Positions 13,915-41,960 of a stretch of DNA of 41,960 nt are shown piece by piece (within the stretch, counting starts at the first letter, position 1; every line of letters begins with the position of its first letter). The notes under the pieces are model-generated. The model was not told where the DNA came from. It saw nothing but the letters and a program-made list of their open reading frames with translations, and made no database searches. This DNA is from Promethearchaeota archaeon (GTDB lineage: Archaea > Asgardarchaeota > Lokiarchaeia > Sigyniarchaeales > SOKP01): contig JAHPZJ010000003.1 in assembly GCA_019058245.1 (NCBI GenBank), positions 1-41,960 on the forward strand, in the 5' to 3' direction. The position numbers and the translations under genes were made by a program.

Positions 13915-14018
13915 TGGGAGAGGGGGGAATTGAACCCCCGACCACTTGGCCCCCAGCCAAATTAACTTGATTATTTAAATACTAATTAATGTATCATACC
14001 AAGCTAGACTACCCTCCC
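13915..14018 (-). tRNA. tRNA-Pro(GGG) with a BHB intron at 27/28 (13961-13990)
   Basis: Spliced: GGGAGGG TA GTCT AGCTTGGTA TGAT A CTTGG CTGGGGG CCAAG TGGTC GGGGG TTCAATT CCCCC CTCTCCC A, followed by oligo-T. Confidence 0.92.
13961..13990 (-). other. 30-nt tRNA intron at 27/28 (anticodon stem)
   Basis: Central helix TGAT/GTTA (two G-U pairs), bulges AC^A and AT^T, inner stem TT-ATTA/TAAT-AA; removal restores the stem CTTGG/CCAAG. Confidence 0.82.
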
Positions 14019-15487: not shown

Positions 15488-16129
15488 ATGATGGAAAATA
15501 ATTTTCATAAAAAACCATTGGATCATGAACAATATGAGAAGATGCTTCAAACAGGAACAACAACCATTGGTATTATGATAAAGGATGGAGTTGTTATAGC
15601 CACTGATTCACAAGCAACTGCAGGAACCTTCGTGGCATCTAAACAAGCTCAGAAATTATTTGAAATTAATAAATATACTGCAGCTACCATCGCAGGAGGA
15701 GTTGCGGATTGTCAGTACGTCATAAATCAAATTCAAGCTTTATCTCGTTTAAAAGAAATTGAAGAAGGAGAAGTAGCTGAGCCAAAATATGTAGCTAGCC
15801 TTTGCAGAAATATATTATTTAGTGGTAGAAGCTATTTTGTAAGTTTGATGATTGTAGGTGGTTATTCAGTAAAACAAAAGGATGGCATCCTATATGGGAT
15901 CGATCTTCTAGGTACGTTGTATGAAGAGGATAGCTATTTATCTTTCGGTTCTGGTAGTCCATTTAGTCTTGGAGTGCTAGAGGCGGATTGGAAACCTAAT
16001 TTAACGAAAGCAAAGGGTATTGAATTAGTAAAAACAGCGATAACTAGTTCAAAAGAAAGAGATGCGGGTTCAGGTTATGAACTACAAATTTGCACTATAG
16101 ATAAGAATGGTTTTAAGCAAGTTGAATAA
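15488..16129 (+). CDS. psmB: proteasome subunit beta
   Basis: Propeptide followed by TG|TTTIG, ATDSQAT, GSGS, RDAGSG. Confidence 0.95.
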   Translation: MMENNFHKKPLDHEQYEKMLQTGTTTIGIMIKDGVVIATDSQATAGTFVASKQAQKLFEINKYTAATIAGGVADCQYVINQIQALSRLKEIEEGEVAEPKYVASLCRNILFSGRSYFVSLMIVGGYSVKQKDGILYGIDLLGTLYEEDSYLSFGSGSPFSLGVLEADWKPNLTKAKGIELVKTAITSSKERDAGSGYELQICTIDKNGFKQVE

Positions 16130-32703: not shown

Positions 32704-34194
32704 TTATGGAAGAGCAAGTCTTCCTGGGTGCATTATCATGTTTGGATCAACAAGCTTTTTAAAAGCCCTAAGATATTTCCAATACATCCCTGCTTGATAA
32801 TAGGCTTGAATGTGAATGTATGGATCTGGTCTGTAGTTAAGCCAGCCCTGTTTAAGGGCATATTCAGTTGTTTCCCGATTTAAGTCTTGAACCCTTTCAA
32901 AATCTGATTGCTTAGTGGAGTCAAAGCCAATTATAGGCATGCATATCGCCTGTCTGCAACGTTCAATACTAGCCACCCAAATTGTTGGGGGAAGACCATG
33001 TTTTTCCGCGGCTTTTGTATACATATCACAAAAGTGGGCGCATTCGTTCCATGGAGTATACCATGTAATAAAGAGAAAACCTGCTTCCCAAAAACTATAT
33101 GGAATTGCAATCTTATTTGGCTTTTTCATTCGACTTGCTATTTGTTTAGGATGTAATTCTTGTTTTTTAAGCGCATCAGGATCTTTTGCTCGTTTTTTAA
33201 AATCTTCTGCTTGTTTGTCTATAGTCTCAATTACATGATTCAATTCACTCTCTTCTTGAGCCCAAATCTCCCAATTCATCCACCATGGTGAGATTCCCAT
33301 TCCCTCATAGAATTCATAATCATGTGGGACCTTATCTTTAGGCCAACGAGTCATAACCAGTTGGTAATTTCCCCCCTGGACCATAACTGTGTGATGAGAT
33401 ATTCCAAACTCTTTTTTACCAACTTCAAGGGTTAAATCTTGCATATCATAAGGATTCGACATACCCCAAACTACTACAGTCTTATGTTTTGGATGGGGAT
33501 AAATTTTCACAGCTGCTTTAGTAATAACACCAAAAGAACCTTGAGAACCCATTAAGAAACTCCACATATCAGGACCTAAACCATATTTATAAAAAGGTTT
33601 AGCAAAAGGAAGTGCCCAAGATCCAGTTCGTACTACATCTCCATTTGGGAACACAATTTCTCCACACATAAAATTATCTCCTTGTGGACCAACTGAAGAG
33701 GTATATAAAGAAAATCCACGATCAATCGCATCTCCCATAACTGTCGCAGCTGGAGGAGCACCATCAGGAATAGGGGGCGCCCAATCGGGGTGATTTTTAT
33801 GCATATAAGCCCAAAGTTCCCCATTGGTCACGCCTGGCTCTATCACACAAAAACGGTTATCCTCATCAATTTCAATAATTCTTTTCATTCTTCCTAAATC
33901 AAGAACAACTCCACCAGGTCTTATTGTAGGACATGCAAATCCTCCAGATAATCCACCGGAAATGGGACTTACAGCAATCTTCTCAGCAGAACAATATATC
34001 AATATTTTGCGTATTTCCTCGACATATTTCGGTCTAACAACGATATCAGGAATTTGAGACTCTAATCCCATGATTGCTTTTGCCAGATAGCCCGCAGTAA
34101 TCGCCTTGTTGTTTGTAGCAAATTCTTTACCGACAATACCAATCATAGCTTCGAAATCTTTTTCCGTACAAAGTTTATAGCTCATAATTTCCAA
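32704..34194 (-). CDS. FAD-binding oxidoreductase (GlcD/VAO-PCMH family), partner of the downstream Fe-S protein
   Basis: PDIVVRP, LDLGRMKRIIEID, IEPGVT, GSQGSFGVIT, DPNMIMHPG. Confidence 0.92.
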   Translation of the reverse strand: MEIMSYKLCTEKDFEAMIGIVGKEFATNNKAITAGYLAKAIMGLESQIPDIVVRPKYVEEIRKILIYCSAEKIAVSPISGGLSGGFACPTIRPGGVVLDLGRMKRIIEIDEDNRFCVIEPGVTNGELWAYMHKNHPDWAPPIPDGAPPAATVMGDAIDRGFSLYTSSVGPQGDNFMCGEIVFPNGDVVRTGSWALPFAKPFYKYGLGPDMWSFLMGSQGSFGVITKAAVKIYPHPKHKTVVVWGMSNPYDMQDLTLEVGKKEFGISHHTVMVQGGNYQLVMTRWPKDKVPHDYEFYEGMGISPWWMNWEIWAQEESELNHVIETIDKQAEDFKKRAKDPDALKKQELHPKQIASRMKKPNKIAIPYSFWEAGFLFITWYTPWNECAHFCDMYTKAAEKHGLPPTIWVASIERCRQAICMPIIGFDSTKQSDFERVQDLNRETTEYALKQGWLNYRPDPYIHIQAYYQAGMYWKYLRAFKKLVDPNMIMHPGRLALP

Positions 34195-35292: not shown

Positions 35293-36096
35293 TTATCTTT
35301 TTAGGAACATTTTCGATGAATATCTTATCCCTATGAAAAGAAAGAACAGAGAAAATATCAAAGTTAATGGCAATTGACCTACTATAATATAAGCGAATTG
35401 AGGTTCTGATGAAAAGAAAAACAATGTAATAGAAACTCCTAAAAAAATAAATGAATTAAGAGTAGCAATTTTCCAGTTTGGAGATAAAAAACCAAAAATC
35501 AAATTTGGAGGTAAAAATAAAATAATAATATTTGCTGTCGATAATAAGATTAAAATTGGCATGAATCTTGTGAATAATTGCTCCGCGTTATAGAATCGGT
35601 TTAAATTAAAATATTGAAAAATGAATAAAGTTACATTTATACTCAAAACAATTAAAAGATAAGATAAAGGGCCAACTAATAACCATGACAATAACGTCCT
35701 TATAATTGGTTTTTGCATTACTTTTCCCTTTAAATTATTACTAAATATTACTTCCATCTCATCAGGGAAAATTAATTCAGGATCATATTCGGGTGAATAT
35801 GCGTCGATAAAATCTTGCATCATATTTTTAAGTATCACCGTGATTAAATCATTATTATCACTCGTTCCTGCCACAGCTGCTCCGAGAATTCGTTCTTCTT
35901 CATTAGGAACTAAAATAAGTTTATTATTTTCCCCAAGATCAACGTTTTTAATCACACTTCCAAGAGCTTCTCTACCAAAATTAGCTATTGATGAAAAAAA
36001 TCCTATTAGAATATTTTCATCAAATTTTTTTTCAATAAAATTTTTGGAATATAATAAAATTCCATTTTCGTCCAAAAAATAAACACTTTTTAACAT
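35293..36096 (-). CDS. longin-like domain fused to ~4 TM helices
   Basis: MLKSVYFLDENGILLYSKNF..DENILIGFFSSIANFGRE..VILKNMMQDFIDAY longin pattern; hydrophobic C-terminal half. Confidence 0.75.
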   Translation of the reverse strand: MLKSVYFLDENGILLYSKNFIEKKFDENILIGFFSSIANFGREALGSVIKNVDLGENNKLILVPNEEERILGAAVAGTSDNNDLITVILKNMMQDFIDAYSPEYDPELIFPDEMEVIFSNNLKGKVMQKPIIRTLLSWLLVGPLSYLLIVLSINVTLFIFQYFNLNRFYNAEQLFTRFMPILILLSTANIIILFLPPNLIFGFLSPNWKIATLNSFIFLGVSITLFFFSSEPQFAYIIVGQLPLTLIFSLFFLFIGIRYSSKMFLKR

Positions 36097-36126
36097 TTTA
36101 TTCTTCCATATCATTAATTTTTAATT

Positions 36127-37872
36127 TTATGTGTAACTACTTTCAAAAAATTCTTTATAATCTTCTAAGGATGCTTTATACCTTTTAAAACTGAAAAGAG
36201 AATGACCAAATAATTTTGTTAATCGAATTATCATCTTATTAGGCTCATCTTTTAAAAAAATTTTATATTTTTCATTTTTTCTCTCTTCTTGAATTTTTGC
36301 TATTTCATCAAACTCACGTAGTTTTTCAATCAATGATTCATCAGGATTACTTAATTCTATCGTAAGAATTTCTCCTGATTGAGGTAATTCTTCCATTAAT
36401 TTGTTGAAAGTTCCAATTTTTGATGCGTTTTTACTAATAGTTAATATTTGATCACATTTAGAAACTATACCCTCTGGGGCATGAAAGATTAAAATTACAT
36501 TAAATTTCTCTTTAATATTTTGCATATAATTATTAAATTTGTCATATTCCAATCGATCTAATATTTCATAAGGAATAAAGAACATAATTATTGAGGGAAA
36601 TGATACTAAGGATCTAGCAATTGAAAATAAAAGAAAATCCAAATGATTCAACTCGGAACATCGCTTATTCTTCTTATGTAATAATCCAGTCAGCTCTAGA
36701 GCATTCTTAATATAAGTTTTACTGCGAATAAATCTCTTTGAGGGAGCCACAAATATTTCCCTTATAATTTCATCAATTCTAGGAACAAAACCTGCAGTTT
36801 TTAGTAATAATTGCAATTTAGTTTTTCTAATTTTTAAGATTTCTTTAATGTTGATTTTATATTTGATTGCTTTCTTAACCTTCATATTTAATATGTTTGA
36901 TTCATGTGCTTGGGGTAATATCACTATTTTTTCTAATTCCATTTTGTTCAAAAATTGAATTTCTTTTCCAAAAATCTTTATATTACCTGTAAATTCGGAA
37001 AAATTTCCTGAAATACTCCAGAACAAATAGAATAAATCATATTGATGCTCTGTGTCAGATAATTGTTCTTCATCATAGAGTATTCCAATTGATTTTCCTC
37101 TATGAATTCTAAAAGAAATGTTTTGAACACCATTCTCTATAGAGACATTTTCAAGCAATAAGTGTTGTGAATTTGGTCTTAATCTATCTAATTTTAAGCG
37201 CGTTTCTACTATATTACATACTTTTTGGATTAATTGGTAAATATGAGGAGGATTTAGTTCATTCCAATTTTTGATAAGATCCACATTGTTAAACTCCCTT
37301 TCACTTATAATTTTTAAAAGTGTTTTTGAAAAGGAAAAAAATGGTAGAAGAGGGTATTTTTCAAAATTTATTTGTAATTTTATAACAAAATAAGGATAAG
37401 AAATTCTAAATTCTCTATGGTAAGGATTATTATCAATCATATAATTTTCAAATCTATTATCCAATAATTCCACTTCTTTTTCGAGTATCATCATATGATT
37501 TTGAAATTCTTTTCTAATGAGTTTCCTCATACGTTCGATTATTTTTTTAGGACTAACAAGTCCGTCATTATCAAAATCAGGCTCAACAATTAATTCATTA
37601 AAGTCAATTTCATCTATGAGTGGAGTATAAATTTTTAATAAAGGCACTCCCCTATCCTTTACATCCTGATTAGTAAAGAATAATACTTCAATAAATGATT
37701 TCTTATAAATTAAATTTAGAATTGAAGCAATCCCAAAGGTATTTTCTCGATATGTAATCCAAAAACGTTTAGAAAACCTGACGGCATCTAATATTTTTAA
37801 TCTTAGACGTTCTAACTCAATGGTTCTAGGATCCTTGAGCAATTTGATTTTCTTAATTTTAATAGATTTCAT
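36127..37872 (-). CDS. UBC/UEV/RWD-like domain(s) fused to a degenerate ABC ATPase
   Basis: LQINFEKYPLLPFFSF..LIKNWNELNPPHIYQLI E2-fold pattern; ABC scaffold (QNISFRIHRGKSIGIL, ILPQ, SIARSL, LIFH) lacking Walker A, LSGGQ and Walker B DE. Confidence 0.72.
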   Translation of the reverse strand: MKSIKIKKIKLLKDPRTIELERLRLKILDAVRFSKRFWITYRENTFGIASILNLIYKKSFIEVLFFTNQDVKDRGVPLLKIYTPLIDEIDFNELIVEPDFDNDGLVSPKKIIERMRKLIRKEFQNHMMILEKEVELLDNRFENYMIDNNPYHREFRISYPYFVIKLQINFEKYPLLPFFSFSKTLLKIISEREFNNVDLIKNWNELNPPHIYQLIQKVCNIVETRLKLDRLRPNSQHLLLENVSIENGVQNISFRIHRGKSIGILYDEEQLSDTEHQYDLFYLFWSISGNFSEFTGNIKIFGKEIQFLNKMELEKIVILPQAHESNILNMKVKKAIKYKINIKEILKIRKTKLQLLLKTAGFVPRIDEIIREIFVAPSKRFIRSKTYIKNALELTGLLHKKNKRCSELNHLDFLLFSIARSLVSFPSIIMFFIPYEILDRLEYDKFNNYMQNIKEKFNVILIFHAPEGIVSKCDQILTISKNASKIGTFNKLMEELPQSGEILTIELSNPDESLIEKLREFDEIAKIQEERKNEKYKIFLKDEPNKMIIRLTKLFGHSLFSFKRYKASLEDYKEFFESSYT

Positions 37873-40800
37873 TCATTTAGACACCTCCATTGCTTTATAG
37901 CGGAAATATTGCTCCATTTTCGAATCTATTTGTTTTACTTCTTGAATTGAATTTTTTCCTATCTTTTCTTCTATCCTTTCAACTAATGTATCAATATTTA
38001 AATTGGAAAATATAGAATAATTAGTACCTGCTTTATTTTCTAGAACTTTATCAATTCCTTCAATCAATTCGAGTTTTTCAATTGCATTTTCTTTTATATT
38101 CGTAAATTCAACTTCGATTGATCTACCTTTTCCTGGTAAATTTGATAAGAGTTCTTTTGGTTGCCCAAAATCAATCATTCCTCGCTTTCGCCCAAAAATT
38201 GCTATAAGATTACAAAATCTGGATTCTTCTGGATAATGAGTAATTACAACCAAGGTGGTTTTAAATTGCTCATTAATTTTAGTTAAAACTAAAAATAGAT
38301 TTTCACGAACAACGGGGTCTAAACCAGAAGTCGGTTCATCTAAAATTAAAAATATCGGTGAGTGTATTAATCCTATTGCGATGCTAACTCGTCTTTTTTG
38401 TCCTCCAGAAAGATTTTTAACTAATTCATCCATTTTATCTTCAATTTCTAAATTTCGCAAAATTCTTTTAGCCCTACTCATAATTTCCTTTTCTGTTAGC
38501 CCATATTGACCCCCAAAATATAATAAATTATCAAATGTTGTAAAATTTTGATAAATTTTTCCTAAATCTTGAGGAACATAGCCATATATAGGTCTAATCC
38601 TTCTCGAAGTTCTCTTATTCATATTCATTCCATAAATTTGGCAAAATCCTGTGATTTTTCTCATACCCAATAACCCTTTAATAAAGGTTGATTTACCCGC
38701 TCCACTTTCTCCTAAAATACCTAATATTTTTCCATGTTCCACATTCATAGAAACTGAATCAACTATTAATTTTCCTCCAGCGAAAATGCTTAAATTTTCA
38801 CAATTAATAGCAGGAAACTTTTCTAGATATGATTCATTAAGTTTCCCCCCAATTCCTAATAATAATTTAATTCTCTGCGGTATTGAAAGCCTTTTATAAA
38901 GTTTTAACAAGATAAATACTCCAATCCCTGCAGCTTCAATAAGTAGGATATATGTTAATAACAGATTCCAAGGTTTTGAATCAAAGCTCTGATCATATTG
39001 CAATTCATCCACTATAACAATTGCATTAGCTACATTTCTTAAATCACCTCCAAATCCCGGATTGTCACCCACTCCTCCTGTGTTATTACTAACACATTGA
39101 AGATACCAATTTAAAGTAGTTTTTATATTTTCTGGCTGAAATCTGTAATCATAAAGGCCTTTTGATCCAAAATAAGTAATTAAAAAGTTTGATGGTAAGT
39201 CAAGATAAGCCCCAAAAGCGGGTAGAACTAAAAAAGAGCCATCTGAAGTTTGTGAGTTCTTTAAAAACTCAATAGCATCTATTTTAGCTAATGGTTCAGA
39301 ATTTAATAAATCAGTAAAAATTTCCAATCCATAATAAGTAGAAATTACATCACTGTGGAATCCTATGAACAGGGAAAACCCACCATCTGGATTTTGACAT
39401 GATTTCATCCAATGCGTAAGATTTACATGATCAATATTGTTTAATCCGTCAATAAGTTCTAGAGAATACAAAGCCCAATAAGTACTTTCTATTGTTGAGA
39501 TATTTGAATTAATTAAATATAAAATTACTTGGTAGAACGCGCCATACATGTTTAAAACAGCTTCTACATCTTGACCGATGCTAAATCCGCCATCAGGATT
39601 CTGAAGATCAGATAAATAATTTGTTATATTTCCAGTTTGATAATCACTAGGCCACTTATTTGTAAAAGGAAGAAGGTTATCATAGATATTTAATCCACAA
39701 TATGTTGCATATAAAGTGGCATTTTCACCAGGAGAAGAAGAAAATCCACCATTATATGGATTATAACATCTTTCAACAAAGTTTGTTATGTTCTTTAATA
39801 TTTCTTCATTCATAATCTCTTTATTTATAAATTCAGTAAAAATTTTAGGATTATAATTATAAAGGGCTGAGATTCCGTTAAAATTTGCTTCTATTGTAGT
39901 ACCTCCAAATAATGAATTTTGTCCTTGAAAAAAATGAAGCCATTCATAATAATTAAGAGTAGCTTTTCTAATATCAGCAAGGTTACTTTCAGTTAAGGAT
40001 TCTAATTTGAGAATATCAATTGATTTCATAGCAGCCCACCCTGATATAAAATCGGAATTATCATTTGAATTTGGACTTGAACGAAAACCCCCATCTCCAT
40101 TTGAACAATTAAGTATAAAAGATAGAGTTTTTTGTTCGTCAAATAAGAGAGGAGTAGGTAAACCTAATCTTTTTAATGATGATAAAGCGTAATACGTCGA
40201 TTGGACATCAGAAGGTCCACCTAAAATATTAGAAAAGCCATAATCTATAACATTGTATAGCGAACTAAGATAGATATAAATAGCCGACAATTCTGCAGAA
40301 GTATAGGTCATATTCATTCCTAAAAATGCTTGAATTCCGTAATAGGTTGATTCGGCTGTTGCTAAACTTAAAGCATCATTTGTCATTTTATAACTCCCTA
40401 CTAGCCATGTGGAATTAATATATTTTGAAATGTTCTCATTTCTAAGAATGAAATCCCCATTTAAAGTATTAGCTAAATAAATAGCACATGAAGTAGATTT
40501 TAAATCAGTAATATTTAAGAAGGGAATTAACTTAAATCCCCCTTCTTCTTTGTTCAGTGAATTATTTATATAATTTATAATATTGTCTGTCTGATTTTGC
40601 TGAATTTTATTTTGCAAATATGATTGATTTGCAATCTCTAAAGTTTTTATTGCTTGATATGTAGAAATCATATTTCCAAATCCACCTATATCTGAATATG
40701 AACCATCTATATTTTGTTTTTCAAAAATATAATCAAAAAATATATTTGGTTTCTCTGTTTTCACATTTTGGTTTGAAATATTATTTGGATTCACTAATTC

Positions 40801-41028
40801 AGACGAAGATATACTAACAAATGTAAAATTTATTGAATCAATTGCTCTGAAATTAGAATCTAAAGTAGGTTCAATAAACAATCCATCATCATTTTGGTGA
40901 GTCCACGTGAAAAAAACAGCATTGTCCTTAATAAATCGAACATCTTCATTATCAATATATTCAATATAAGGAATGTTAACTAAAACAAGAGATATAATAG
41001 GAACACATACTAAAATTCCCAAAACCAA
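37873..41028 (-). CDS. prenyltransferase/squalene-cyclase-like repeat ectodomain + TM + intact ABC ATPase
   Basis: About 11 QNxDGGF..STYY-type repeats rich in N-glycosylation sequons; TM WNLLLTYILLIEAAGIGVFILL; GESGAGKST, YVPQ, LSGGQ, LILDEPT, VITH. Confidence 0.88.
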   Translation of the reverse strand: MVLGILVCVPIISLVLVNIPYIEYIDNEDVRFIKDNAVFFTWTHQNDDGLFIEPTLDSNFRAIDSINFTFVSISSSELVNPNNISNQNVKTEKPNIFFDYIFEKQNIDGSYSDIGGFGNMISTYQAIKTLEIANQSYLQNKIQQNQTDNIINYINNSLNKEEGGFKLIPFLNITDLKSTSCAIYLANTLNGDFILRNENISKYINSTWLVGSYKMTNDALSLATAESTYYGIQAFLGMNMTYTSAELSAIYIYLSSLYNVIDYGFSNILGGPSDVQSTYYALSSLKRLGLPTPLLFDEQKTLSFILNCSNGDGGFRSSPNSNDNSDFISGWAAMKSIDILKLESLTESNLADIRKATLNYYEWLHFFQGQNSLFGGTTIEANFNGISALYNYNPKIFTEFINKEIMNEEILKNITNFVERCYNPYNGGFSSSPGENATLYATYCGLNIYDNLLPFTNKWPSDYQTGNITNYLSDLQNPDGGFSIGQDVEAVLNMYGAFYQVILYLINSNISTIESTYWALYSLELIDGLNNIDHVNLTHWMKSCQNPDGGFSLFIGFHSDVISTYYGLEIFTDLLNSEPLAKIDAIEFLKNSQTSDGSFLVLPAFGAYLDLPSNFLITYFGSKGLYDYRFQPENIKTTLNWYLQCVSNNTGGVGDNPGFGGDLRNVANAIVIVDELQYDQSFDSKPWNLLLTYILLIEAAGIGVFILLKLYKRLSIPQRIKLLLGIGGKLNESYLEKFPAINCENLSIFAGGKLIVDSVSMNVEHGKILGILGESGAGKSTFIKGLLGMRKITGFCQIYGMNMNKRTSRRIRPIYGYVPQDLGKIYQNFTTFDNLLYFGGQYGLTEKEIMSRAKRILRNLEIEDKMDELVKNLSGGQKRRVSIAIGLIHSPIFLILDEPTSGLDPVVRENLFLVLTKINEQFKTTLVVITHYPEESRFCNLIAIFGRKRGMIDFGQPKELLSNLPGKGRSIEVEFTNIKENAIEKLELIEGIDKVLENKAGTNYSIFSNLNIDTLVERIEEKIGKNSIQEVKQIDSKMEQYFRYKAMEVSK

Positions 41029-41069
41029 GATACTTTTTAATAATCGTTTTGTTTTGTGCCCTAAATTAA

Positions 41070-41960
41070 TTATTTTCTAATCACCTTTACATCCTTCGAA
41101 CCAATTTCTTTTTCTTCCTCTTGTAAAATTCTAATTTGAAAATACCTTCTAAAAGTAGCGATATCTTTACTCATTGAAGTTATTATAATATTATTATCTA
41201 ATATATACTCGATTACTTTTGGTAGATTTTCTTCAAAATTTTCCATTAAAACCTCAATTGCTTCGTTTCCTACTCTTATTATTCGTCTTATAGAGGGAAA
41301 TTTCTCAATAAAAGCAATTATTTTTTCATTTAGATTTTGAATTGTAAACCTTGCTATTAATCCTTCACTTGGTAGTGAAGATATCAGGTTTTGAGAAGTA
41401 TCAAATTCTAATAACCTTCCATCTCTTAAAATTGCCGCTTTATCACATATTAATGCTGCTTCTAAATCATGAGTAATTATAAACATCGTTGTATTTAACT
41501 TTTGGTTTAATTTCTTTAAATAGCTAAGGATATCATAACGCTTGGAGGCATCCACGCCTTAAACTCTGATAGTTGAATCAACTATATAGTGTAGTCGGCT
41601 CATCTAAGAATAGGACATGTGGATTATGAATTAAACCGATAGCCATTGACAGTCGTTTCTTTTCTCCCCCACTCATCTTTTCAACTTTCTTTTTCCAAGT
41701 ATCTTCTGGAATATCAAGGATTTTAAACAATCTTTCTGCTATTTCTTTTGCATTTTTTTTATTCATTCCATATGTAGAGGTAAATACCTCAACATTTACC
41801 ATTGGATCTAATTCGAAATACAAATTTAACATTTCAAGTTGAGGAACATATCCAATATTGCTGAGGATCTTTGAATGATTACTCTTTTTATCGGGAGATA
41901 AATCAGTAACTTTAACTTCTCCAGACCAATTTTTTTTTTCAATTTGACAGGTCATTACTC
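41070..41960 (-). CDS. ABC-2/DrrA-type ABC ATPase, 5'-truncated by the window edge, interrupted by a 31-nt BHB intron; exons >41960-41591 and 41559-41070
   Basis: [21 protein letters not shown] in exon 1; GVDASKR..IITHDLE..GRLL in exon 2; joined junction DEPTTGVDA. Confidence 0.88.
41560..41590 (-). other. candidate mRNA intron with bulge-helix-bulge motif
   Basis: GCC-GACT-AC^A-CT-AT-ATAGTTG-ATT-CAACTAT-C-AG-AGTT-TA^A-GGC: outer helix GCC/GGC, 4-bp central helix GACT/AGTT, two 3-nt bulges, inner hairpin. Confidence 0.82.

Follow-up and report, generated by a model that had tools for sequence, protein, structure and literature searches.

A predicted extracellular double toroid fused to an ABC ATPase in a six-gene cassette of Asgard archaea

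The DNA analysed here, referred to as the window, is the whole 41,960-bp contig JAHPZJ010000003.1 (G+C about 26%) of a Promethearchaeota archaeon (assembly GCA_019058245.1), whose genome comprises 3.09 Mb and is 76% complete. A single open reading frame (ORF) occupies all of positions 37873-41028 on the minus strand and encodes a fusion protein, P0001, in which a prenyltransferase-like domain predicted to lie outside the cell is followed by one transmembrane (TM) helix and an ATP-binding cassette (ABC) ATPase. A database protein of 1049 amino acids (aa) matches P0001 at 100% identity, and 168 further homologues were found. Normally, an ABC ATPase subunit either stands alone or is joined to a multi-pass permease. 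No description of an ABC ATPase that crosses the membrane once to carry a large outside domain, here of 660 aa, was found in the literature searched.

Architecture of the fusion protein

The gene and its parts are listed below. Conservation was judged in 36 homologues sharing 35-90% identity, in all of which the listed ATPase motifs are invariant. The split between the two toroids is approximate.

37873-41028, minus strand: whole gene, fusion protein P0001, 1051 aa (ORF list and translation; TTG start; stop codon 37873-37875)
40972-41028, minus strand: N-terminal hydrophobic helix, residues 1-19 (hydropathy 2.85; helix 2-17 in the model)
39994-40950, minus strand: toroid 1, first six prenyltransferase-beta-type repeats, residues ~27-345 (hairpins at 45, 105, 157, 209, 258 and 309; PF00432; models)
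38980-39993, minus strand: toroid 2, second six repeats, residues ~346-683 (hairpins at 368, 422, 476, 545, 593 and 646; conservation; fold match)
38896-38964, minus strand: predicted TM helix, residues 689-711 (hydropathy 2.37, then KLYKR)
38818-38895, minus strand: conserved basic juxtamembrane linker, residues 712-737 (low predicted local distance difference test score, pLDDT, at 711-729; conserved residues)
38149-38817, minus strand: ABC nucleotide-binding domain (NBD), residues 738-960 (Pfam and NCBIfam DrrA-type matches; motifs)
38686-38712, minus strand: Walker A, residues 773-781
38566-38577, minus strand: Q-loop, residues 818-821
38398-38412, minus strand: signature LSGGQ, residues 873-877
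38335-38352, minus strand: Walker B and catalytic Glu, residues 893-898
38233-38244, minus strand: H-loop, His931
37876-38148, minus strand: C-terminal regulatory-type domain of the ATPase, residues 961-1051 (structural superposition)

Pfam placed Prenyltrans (PF00432, E = 3e-36) in four stretches of P0001 and ABC_tran (PF00005, E = 7e-27) at residues 757-901. AlphaFold2 gave a pLDDT of 87 for the full-length protein and a confident model of the ectodomain alone (pLDDT 90, predicted template modelling score 0.90). An earlier reading, made from the sequence alone, had described about 11 repeats of the QxxDGGF type forming roughly two alpha/alpha barrels. The repeat type and the two barrels were recovered in the models as six-repeat toroids, while the count was corrected to 12 QNxDGGF hairpin repeats, six per half. 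Aligned to one another, the halves share 25% identity over 294 aa (E = 1.6e-6), which suggests that a six-repeat toroid was duplicated as a whole.

The beta subunits of protein prenyltransferases were the closest relatives of the ectodomain. A profile of 13 ectodomains matched RabGGTase beta in the PDB with E = 4e-24, and FTase beta was also matched. The ectodomain model superposed on the beta subunits of GGTase-I, FTase and GGTase-III with Z 26-27 and a root-mean-square deviation (rmsd) of 2.5-3.1 over 274-297 aa, and the best-quoted match was to GGTase-I beta (Z 27.3, rmsd 2.8, 286 aa). Cyclases scored Z 19, and glycosidase and thioester toroids no higher than Z 18 (thioester, Z about 16). 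When squalene cyclase (1gsz) was compared with the double toroid, 474 aa were aligned with Z 19.1, an rmsd of 7.7 and a Foldseek TM score of 0.2.

No known catalytic motif was present in the ectodomain, in line with the earlier suggestion of a non-catalytic barrel without the DxC...H zinc set. A DxC is lacking in P0001, none of the His residues in the ectodomain is invariant (the best is found in 28 of 36 homologues), and the Zn-ligand positions were unmatched when the ectodomain profile was aligned to RabGGTase beta. DxDD and DDxxD are not conserved (3/36 homologues), DxDD does not occur in P0001, and the CGEQ thioester motif was found in 0/36 ectodomains. The PPTA repeat of prenyltransferase alpha subunits was not found in the 76%-complete host genome. 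Conserved acidic residues (E53, D113, D175, D548 and D655) and about 29 conserved aromatics are present, and the membrane-proximal segment GGDLRN...PW of toroid 2 is strongly conserved. Most conserved ectodomain residues, including all conserved Cys, fall within the repeated structural motif. Since the catalytic features of the related families are missing, the toroid is best read as a binding module rather than an enzyme.

Hydropathy gave exactly two membrane-type segments (residues 1-19 and 689-711), as expected from the N-terminal hydrophobic segment and single TM helix predicted earlier. The ATPase has to face the cytoplasm, and positive charges (KLYKR) follow the C-terminal end of the TM helix; the 660-aa toroid region is accordingly placed outside the cell. 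The proposal of an extracellular barrel is thus borne out to the extent that hydropathy, the positive-inside rule and the dependence on cytoplasmic ATP can tell. N-x-S/T sequons, in which the barrel had been called dense, turned out to be only mildly enriched, with 16 in the P0001 ectodomain against 11.3 +/- 3.0 expected from composition. Over the 36 homologues, the means were 14.2 observed and 8.8 expected (mean z 2.1), and the density was 2.2 per 100 aa outside versus 1.0 inside. Conserved sequon positions include N67 (29/36) and N509 (32/36), as well as N436.

The N-terminal helix is probably an uncleaved signal anchor, since the VNIPY that follows it offers no small -1/-3 residue pair for signal peptidase and Asn18 is invariant wherever the helix is present. 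Pro10 is common in this helix. The TM helix contains a buried residue, Glu698, which is Glu in 32 of the 36 homologues and Asp in two more, and linker residues K721, K729, Y734 and L735 are conserved despite the low pLDDT at 711-729. Conservation of the buried Glu and of the linker to the ATPase suggests that the TM helix makes specific contacts and is not a passive tether. Homologues with a longer 5' end carry a basic stretch (e.g. KTKRLLK) ahead of the first hydrophobic helix. At positions 41029-41076 of the window, the TTG start that a 90%-identical relative uses before GHKTKRLLK reads TTA; therefore, unless translation starts at a non-standard codon, the ORF opens 16 codons further on and is without the basic stretch.

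The ATPase of P0001 is complete, as had been read from the sequence, and under strong constraint. The NCBIfam DrrA model matched it with E = 3e-45, under the curated cut-off. The solved structures nearest in sequence were those of ABCA3, ABCA4, ABCA1 and ABCA7, followed by ABCH-9C (E = 5e-50 to 9e-36). The NBD together with the C-terminal domain (model residues 737-1048) superposed on TM_1403 (4yer_B) with Z 27.7 and rmsd 3.0 over 266 aa, and NosF and the ABCA NBD-R domains matched this region too.

The fusion was conserved in every full-length homologue. Among the 169 homologues, the listed ones of at least about 800 aa carry both Pfam domains. When the ectodomain by itself was searched against 1.8 billion representative proteins, only 22 matches reached E <= 1e-30; the near-full-length matches were all 1040-1150 aa long, and the ABC domain was present in the four of four that were checked. 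No natural split forms were found among the ectodomain matches, the shorter of which look like contig-end fragments. Judged from these sequences, the fusion is the rule for the family of this ectodomain.

A six-gene cassette and its distribution

Three genes next to the fusion gene could be assigned in the window.

41070-41960, minus strand: free ABC ATPase (NBD1), upstream partner, cut by the contig end (NCBIfam DrrA matches to both pieces)
36127-37872, minus strand: 581-aa protein with an N-terminal domain and a degenerate ABC domain without Walker A/B (weak ABC matches at residues 384-571)
35293-36114, minus strand: 273-aa protein with a soluble N-terminal domain and four TM helices (hydropathy)

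The start of the 581-aa pseudo-ATPase gene abuts the stop of the fusion gene. No Pfam match was obtained for the 581-aa and 273-aa proteins or for a 190-aa neighbour protein. Gene order was surveyed in 12 relatives and then in 75 further loci, with counts restricted to loci with enough flank. In relatives the order is ABC-2 permease, ABC-2 permease, free ATPase, fusion, pseudo-ATPase protein (570-620 aa) and 4-TM protein (~270 aa), and the intact free ATPase has 330-350 aa (~333 typical). The window itself shows neither permease, since the contig stops at 41960, within the upstream ABC gene. The ATPase domain directly follows the ectodomain in 69/69 loci, and the pseudo-ATPase protein is present in 64/64 and the 4-TM protein in 56/60. 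Two ABC-2 permeases and the free ATPase accompany the fusion in 54/57 loci. A Helarchaeota-like distant branch is ordered differently (ATPase, fusion, permease, permease).

In five genomes of the same genus (97-100% complete), the flanking genes are contiguous and all six cassette genes are missing; the six genes, therefore, behave as one accessory module that is gained or lost as a unit. One flank holds a FAD-oxidase-like gene and a 190-aa Zn-ribbon gene, and the other holds a CoA-ligase-like gene. The Zn-ribbon gene was considered as a cassette member and ruled out, as it stays in place in genomes without the cassette. Another idea, that the two helices of the fusion and the four of the 273-aa protein form a split ABC-2 permease, was rejected with a profile-profile probability of 0.1%; no homology between the 273-aa protein and ABC-2 permeases was detectable in this comparison.

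The fused form and the six-gene cassette were found only in Asgard archaea, to which all named homologues and 75 species-representative loci belong. Most homologues are labelled Promethearchaeota (Lokiarchaeota), and a few are Hel-, Thor-, Hod-, Hermod- or Odinarchaeota. One homologue contig is labelled Deferrimicrobium, and genome placement puts it in the window's own class. The ectodomain query matches almost always once per genome in the genus and family surveyed.

A related double toroid was seen in other Asgard families within a different conserved trio (loci L091, 7251-14617, and L092, 7113-14686). The trio consists of a 680-763-aa toroid protein, a 1390-aa protein that joins a toroid to 7TM_transglut and a sugar-transfer-associated ATP-grasp domain, and a transglutaminase-like protein. 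Because the related toroid is joined there to an ATP-grasp domain, the outside toroid appears to be a portable module coupled to different cytoplasmic ATP-using domains.

The free ATPase gene of the window is split by a 31-nt insert at 41560-41590 (minus strand), just after the Walker B codons (LDEPTT|GVD). Inserts of 31-34 nt lie at the identical codon boundary in 11 of 77 loci (the window, L030, L031, L040, L041, L059, L067, L070, L071, L076 and L080), and the other 66 have none. The sequence of the central hairpin varies between loci, and its arms stay complementary. These features fit a conserved mini-intron spliced from the mRNA rather than a pseudogene. The FAD-oxidase-like gene beside the cassette (32704-34194) is intact in the window. 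In several relatives it carries about 32 extra nt near codons 45-50, with in-frame stops (one TGA, one TAA), as in L003 (~15622-15653), L013 (~15837-15868) and genomes G228, G279 and G177, and it may be a second protein gene with a mini-intron.

Two further observations were made. In Loki_b31 (locus L040, 2655-4806), the second permease and the free ATPase are separated by a 2.1-kb insertion that holds two ORFs (178 and 272 aa). A duplicated part of the 5' end of the ATPase gene flanks this insertion, which looks like a mobile-element footprint. Elsewhere in the window, a 104-nt tRNA at 13915-14018 (minus strand) was found by Rfam (38.5 bits) and was unreported by ARAGORN, as expected for an intron-bearing archaeal tRNA.

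A putative exporter subunit with an extracellular cap

P0001 is very likely a subunit of an ABC-2 exporter that bears an outside, non-enzymatic toroid. It is probably, with somewhat less confidence, the second ATPase subunit of a heteromeric exporter of the ABCA/ABCH kind, equipped with its own extracellular binding cap. The permeases in relatives' loci are two different ABC2_membrane_3 proteins. Positions 4-386 of the 389 in the permease profile match residues 391-791 of ABCH-9C, its membrane and outer domain, with E = 9e-29, and the organisation (TM1, outer domain, TM2-6) is homologous. In the beetle, ABCH-9C exports ceramide and lipophilic compounds outward (PMC12578276). The curated cut-offs of the named bacterial ABC-2 systems were not reached, and the cassette is no equivalog of any of them.

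In the proposed mechanism, the free ATPase and P0001 would form an ATPase heterodimer beneath a permease heterodimer. The two extension helices, including buried Glu698, would pack against permease helices and hold the double toroid on the outer face above the pump exit at a fixed 1:1 stoichiometry. The toroid would act as a non-catalytic cap to take up, shield or pass along a long hydrophobic cargo from the permeases, and the helix may transmit the ATP-driven closure of the ATPases to the cap. A hydrophobic cargo is probable, and an isoprenoid-type lipid would be the likeliest candidate, although we put this identity forward only tentatively. The earlier idea that the barrel binds isoprenoid or lipid ligands gains some strength from the homology between the transporter core and lipid exporters.

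Several points weigh against this interpretation. How the ATPases pair, how the helices pack and where the toroid sits over the permeases are deduced from gene order only, and the outside placement is predicted from hydropathy, charge pattern and the twofold sequon density. The cassette is dispensable, with ectodomain matches in 9 of the 22 genus genomes and 34 of the 68 family genomes; given this patchiness, it has no core envelope function. It also contains three ATPase-like proteins per two permeases. The basic residues with which prenyltransferases bind diphosphate lack a conserved equivalent in the profile alignment, a weak point as repeats can slip register. Finally, aromatic-rich toroids bind sugars too.

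Four other explanations were considered, and all ranked lower than the reading of P0001 as an ABC-2 exporter subunit. One possible explanation is that the ABC-2 core performs no net transport and that ATP drives conformational work in the ectodomain, as in NosDFY, LolCDE and FtsEX. Such a mechanotransducer could, for example, pull a lipid or lipid-linked molecule from the outer leaflet or load a surface partner. The conserved helix and linker physically tie the ATPase to the ectodomain, and the presence of a pseudo-ATPase and a 4-TM protein in the cassette points to machinery beyond that of a simple pump. However, the permeases are homologous over their full length to a genuine lipid exporter, and the linker between the TM helix and the ATPase is modelled with low confidence and may be flexible. 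The ATPase and its C-terminal domain have NosF of NosDFY as one of their best fold matches, but this likeness is general to the ATPase class. We consider this explanation improbable.

We give about the same small chance to the double toroid being an enzyme with unrecognised chemistry, such as lipid or glycan modification, that acts on what the pump delivers. Alpha/alpha toroids house many enzyme families, and the conserved acidic and aromatic residues of the ectodomain are numerous. These residues lie mostly in the repeated structural motif, however, and no Zn triad, DxDD, DDxxD or thioester motif is conserved. The nearest fold relatives are prenyltransferases, whose catalytic residues are the very ones missing.

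The sequence-only reading had implied a receptor-like ATPase that works without a permease, in which binding of a ligand outside would switch ATP hydrolysis inside. The single-pass layout is like that of receptors, and other Asgard lineages join the related double toroid to an ATP-grasp enzyme via seven TM helices. This idea found no support in the cassette survey, where the fusion is linked to the two permeases and the partner ATPase in all but three of the 57 loci with enough flank and is lost along with them. In addition, the transporter-coupling motifs are all conserved, and ATP hydrolysis by an ABC domain requires a second ABC domain. A stand-alone receptor is, thus, very improbable. Least probable of all is an uptake system in which the toroid captures a scarce hydrophobic nutrient (a quinone, corrinoid or sterol-like compound) for import, since the characterised relatives matched in this permease and ATPase class are all exporters and the cassette has no importer-type permease, even though some ABC importers have tethered binding domains and a patchy distribution fits an accessory nutritional trait.

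A more specific form of the exporter reading, which we regard as unlikely as it stands, is an archaeal lipid exporter with a built-in acceptor that expels isoprenoid lipids or polyprenyl-linked molecules straight into the tethered prenyl-binding double toroid. If this were true, the acceptor would pass lipids to the cell surface, protrusions or a partner cell, and the fusion would be the single-chain equivalent of paired exporters and acceptors such as ABCA1/apoA-I and Snu/Snsl. It would also mean that Asgard prenyltransferase-beta-like toroids first served as extracellular lipid binders, which bears on the origin of eukaryotic prenylation enzymes. Should the cargo be an isoprenoid lipid, the cassette would give a handle on surface lipid traffic in the closest archaeal relatives of eukaryotes.

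The findings also bear on how such proteins are counted. Automatic annotation names some members of the family 'geranylgeranyltransferase type II', and homologues of prenyltransferase subunits have been described as common in archaea and as possible building blocks of the prenylation machinery (Surkont and Pereira-Leal, PMC4915359). Going by the predicted layout of P0001 and its family, a part at least of the Asgard beta-like proteins lies outside the cell and has no metal site. The toroid family of P0001 should not count as evidence for protein prenylation because it is extracellular, by this prediction, and without the catalytic metal site.

Comparison with known systems

The ectodomain is most like the beta subunits of the protein prenyltransferases (RabGGTase/GGTase-II, GGTase-I, GGTase-III and FTase), which share its six-hairpin PFTB toroid and are its best match in sequence and fold. 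These subunits are cytosolic, bind Zn through Asp/Cys/His and pair with a PPTA alpha partner, whereas P0001 has two tandem toroids that are predicted to lie outside, lack Zn ligands and are followed by a TM helix and an ABC ATPase. Squalene-hopene and oxidosqualene cyclases likewise have two alpha/alpha barrels per chain, with a loose joint overlay. They differ from P0001 in that the pair superposes poorly, DxDD is absent from P0001 and the toroids of P0001 are predicted to be extracellular.

The transporter part resembles the insect ABCH-9C and human ABCA lipid exporters (type V/ABC-2) through homology of the permease and ATPase and through a C-terminal regulatory-type domain, as in ABCA. In the cassette, however, the two permeases and two ATPases are separate genes, a pseudo-ATPase and a 4-TM protein are added, and the large outside domain is carried on an ATPase subunit via a single helix and not on a permease. 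Bacterial heteromeric ABC-2 systems (YbhFSR/RbbA-YhhJ type, DrrAB) similarly have a DrrA-type ATPase, ABC2_membrane_3 proteins and two different permeases, and we know of no ATPase-borne ectodomain among them.

In the proposed model, P0001 would also be comparable to LptC of LptB2FGC and NosD of NosDFY, where an outside domain or single helix is likewise added to an ABC core for the cargo. LptC and NosD are separate proteins with folds unlike the toroid, whereas in P0001 the partner is joined covalently to the ATPase. P0001 would be a natural case of a covalent link between motor and extracellular cargo domain in the ABCA/ABCH-type exporter class.

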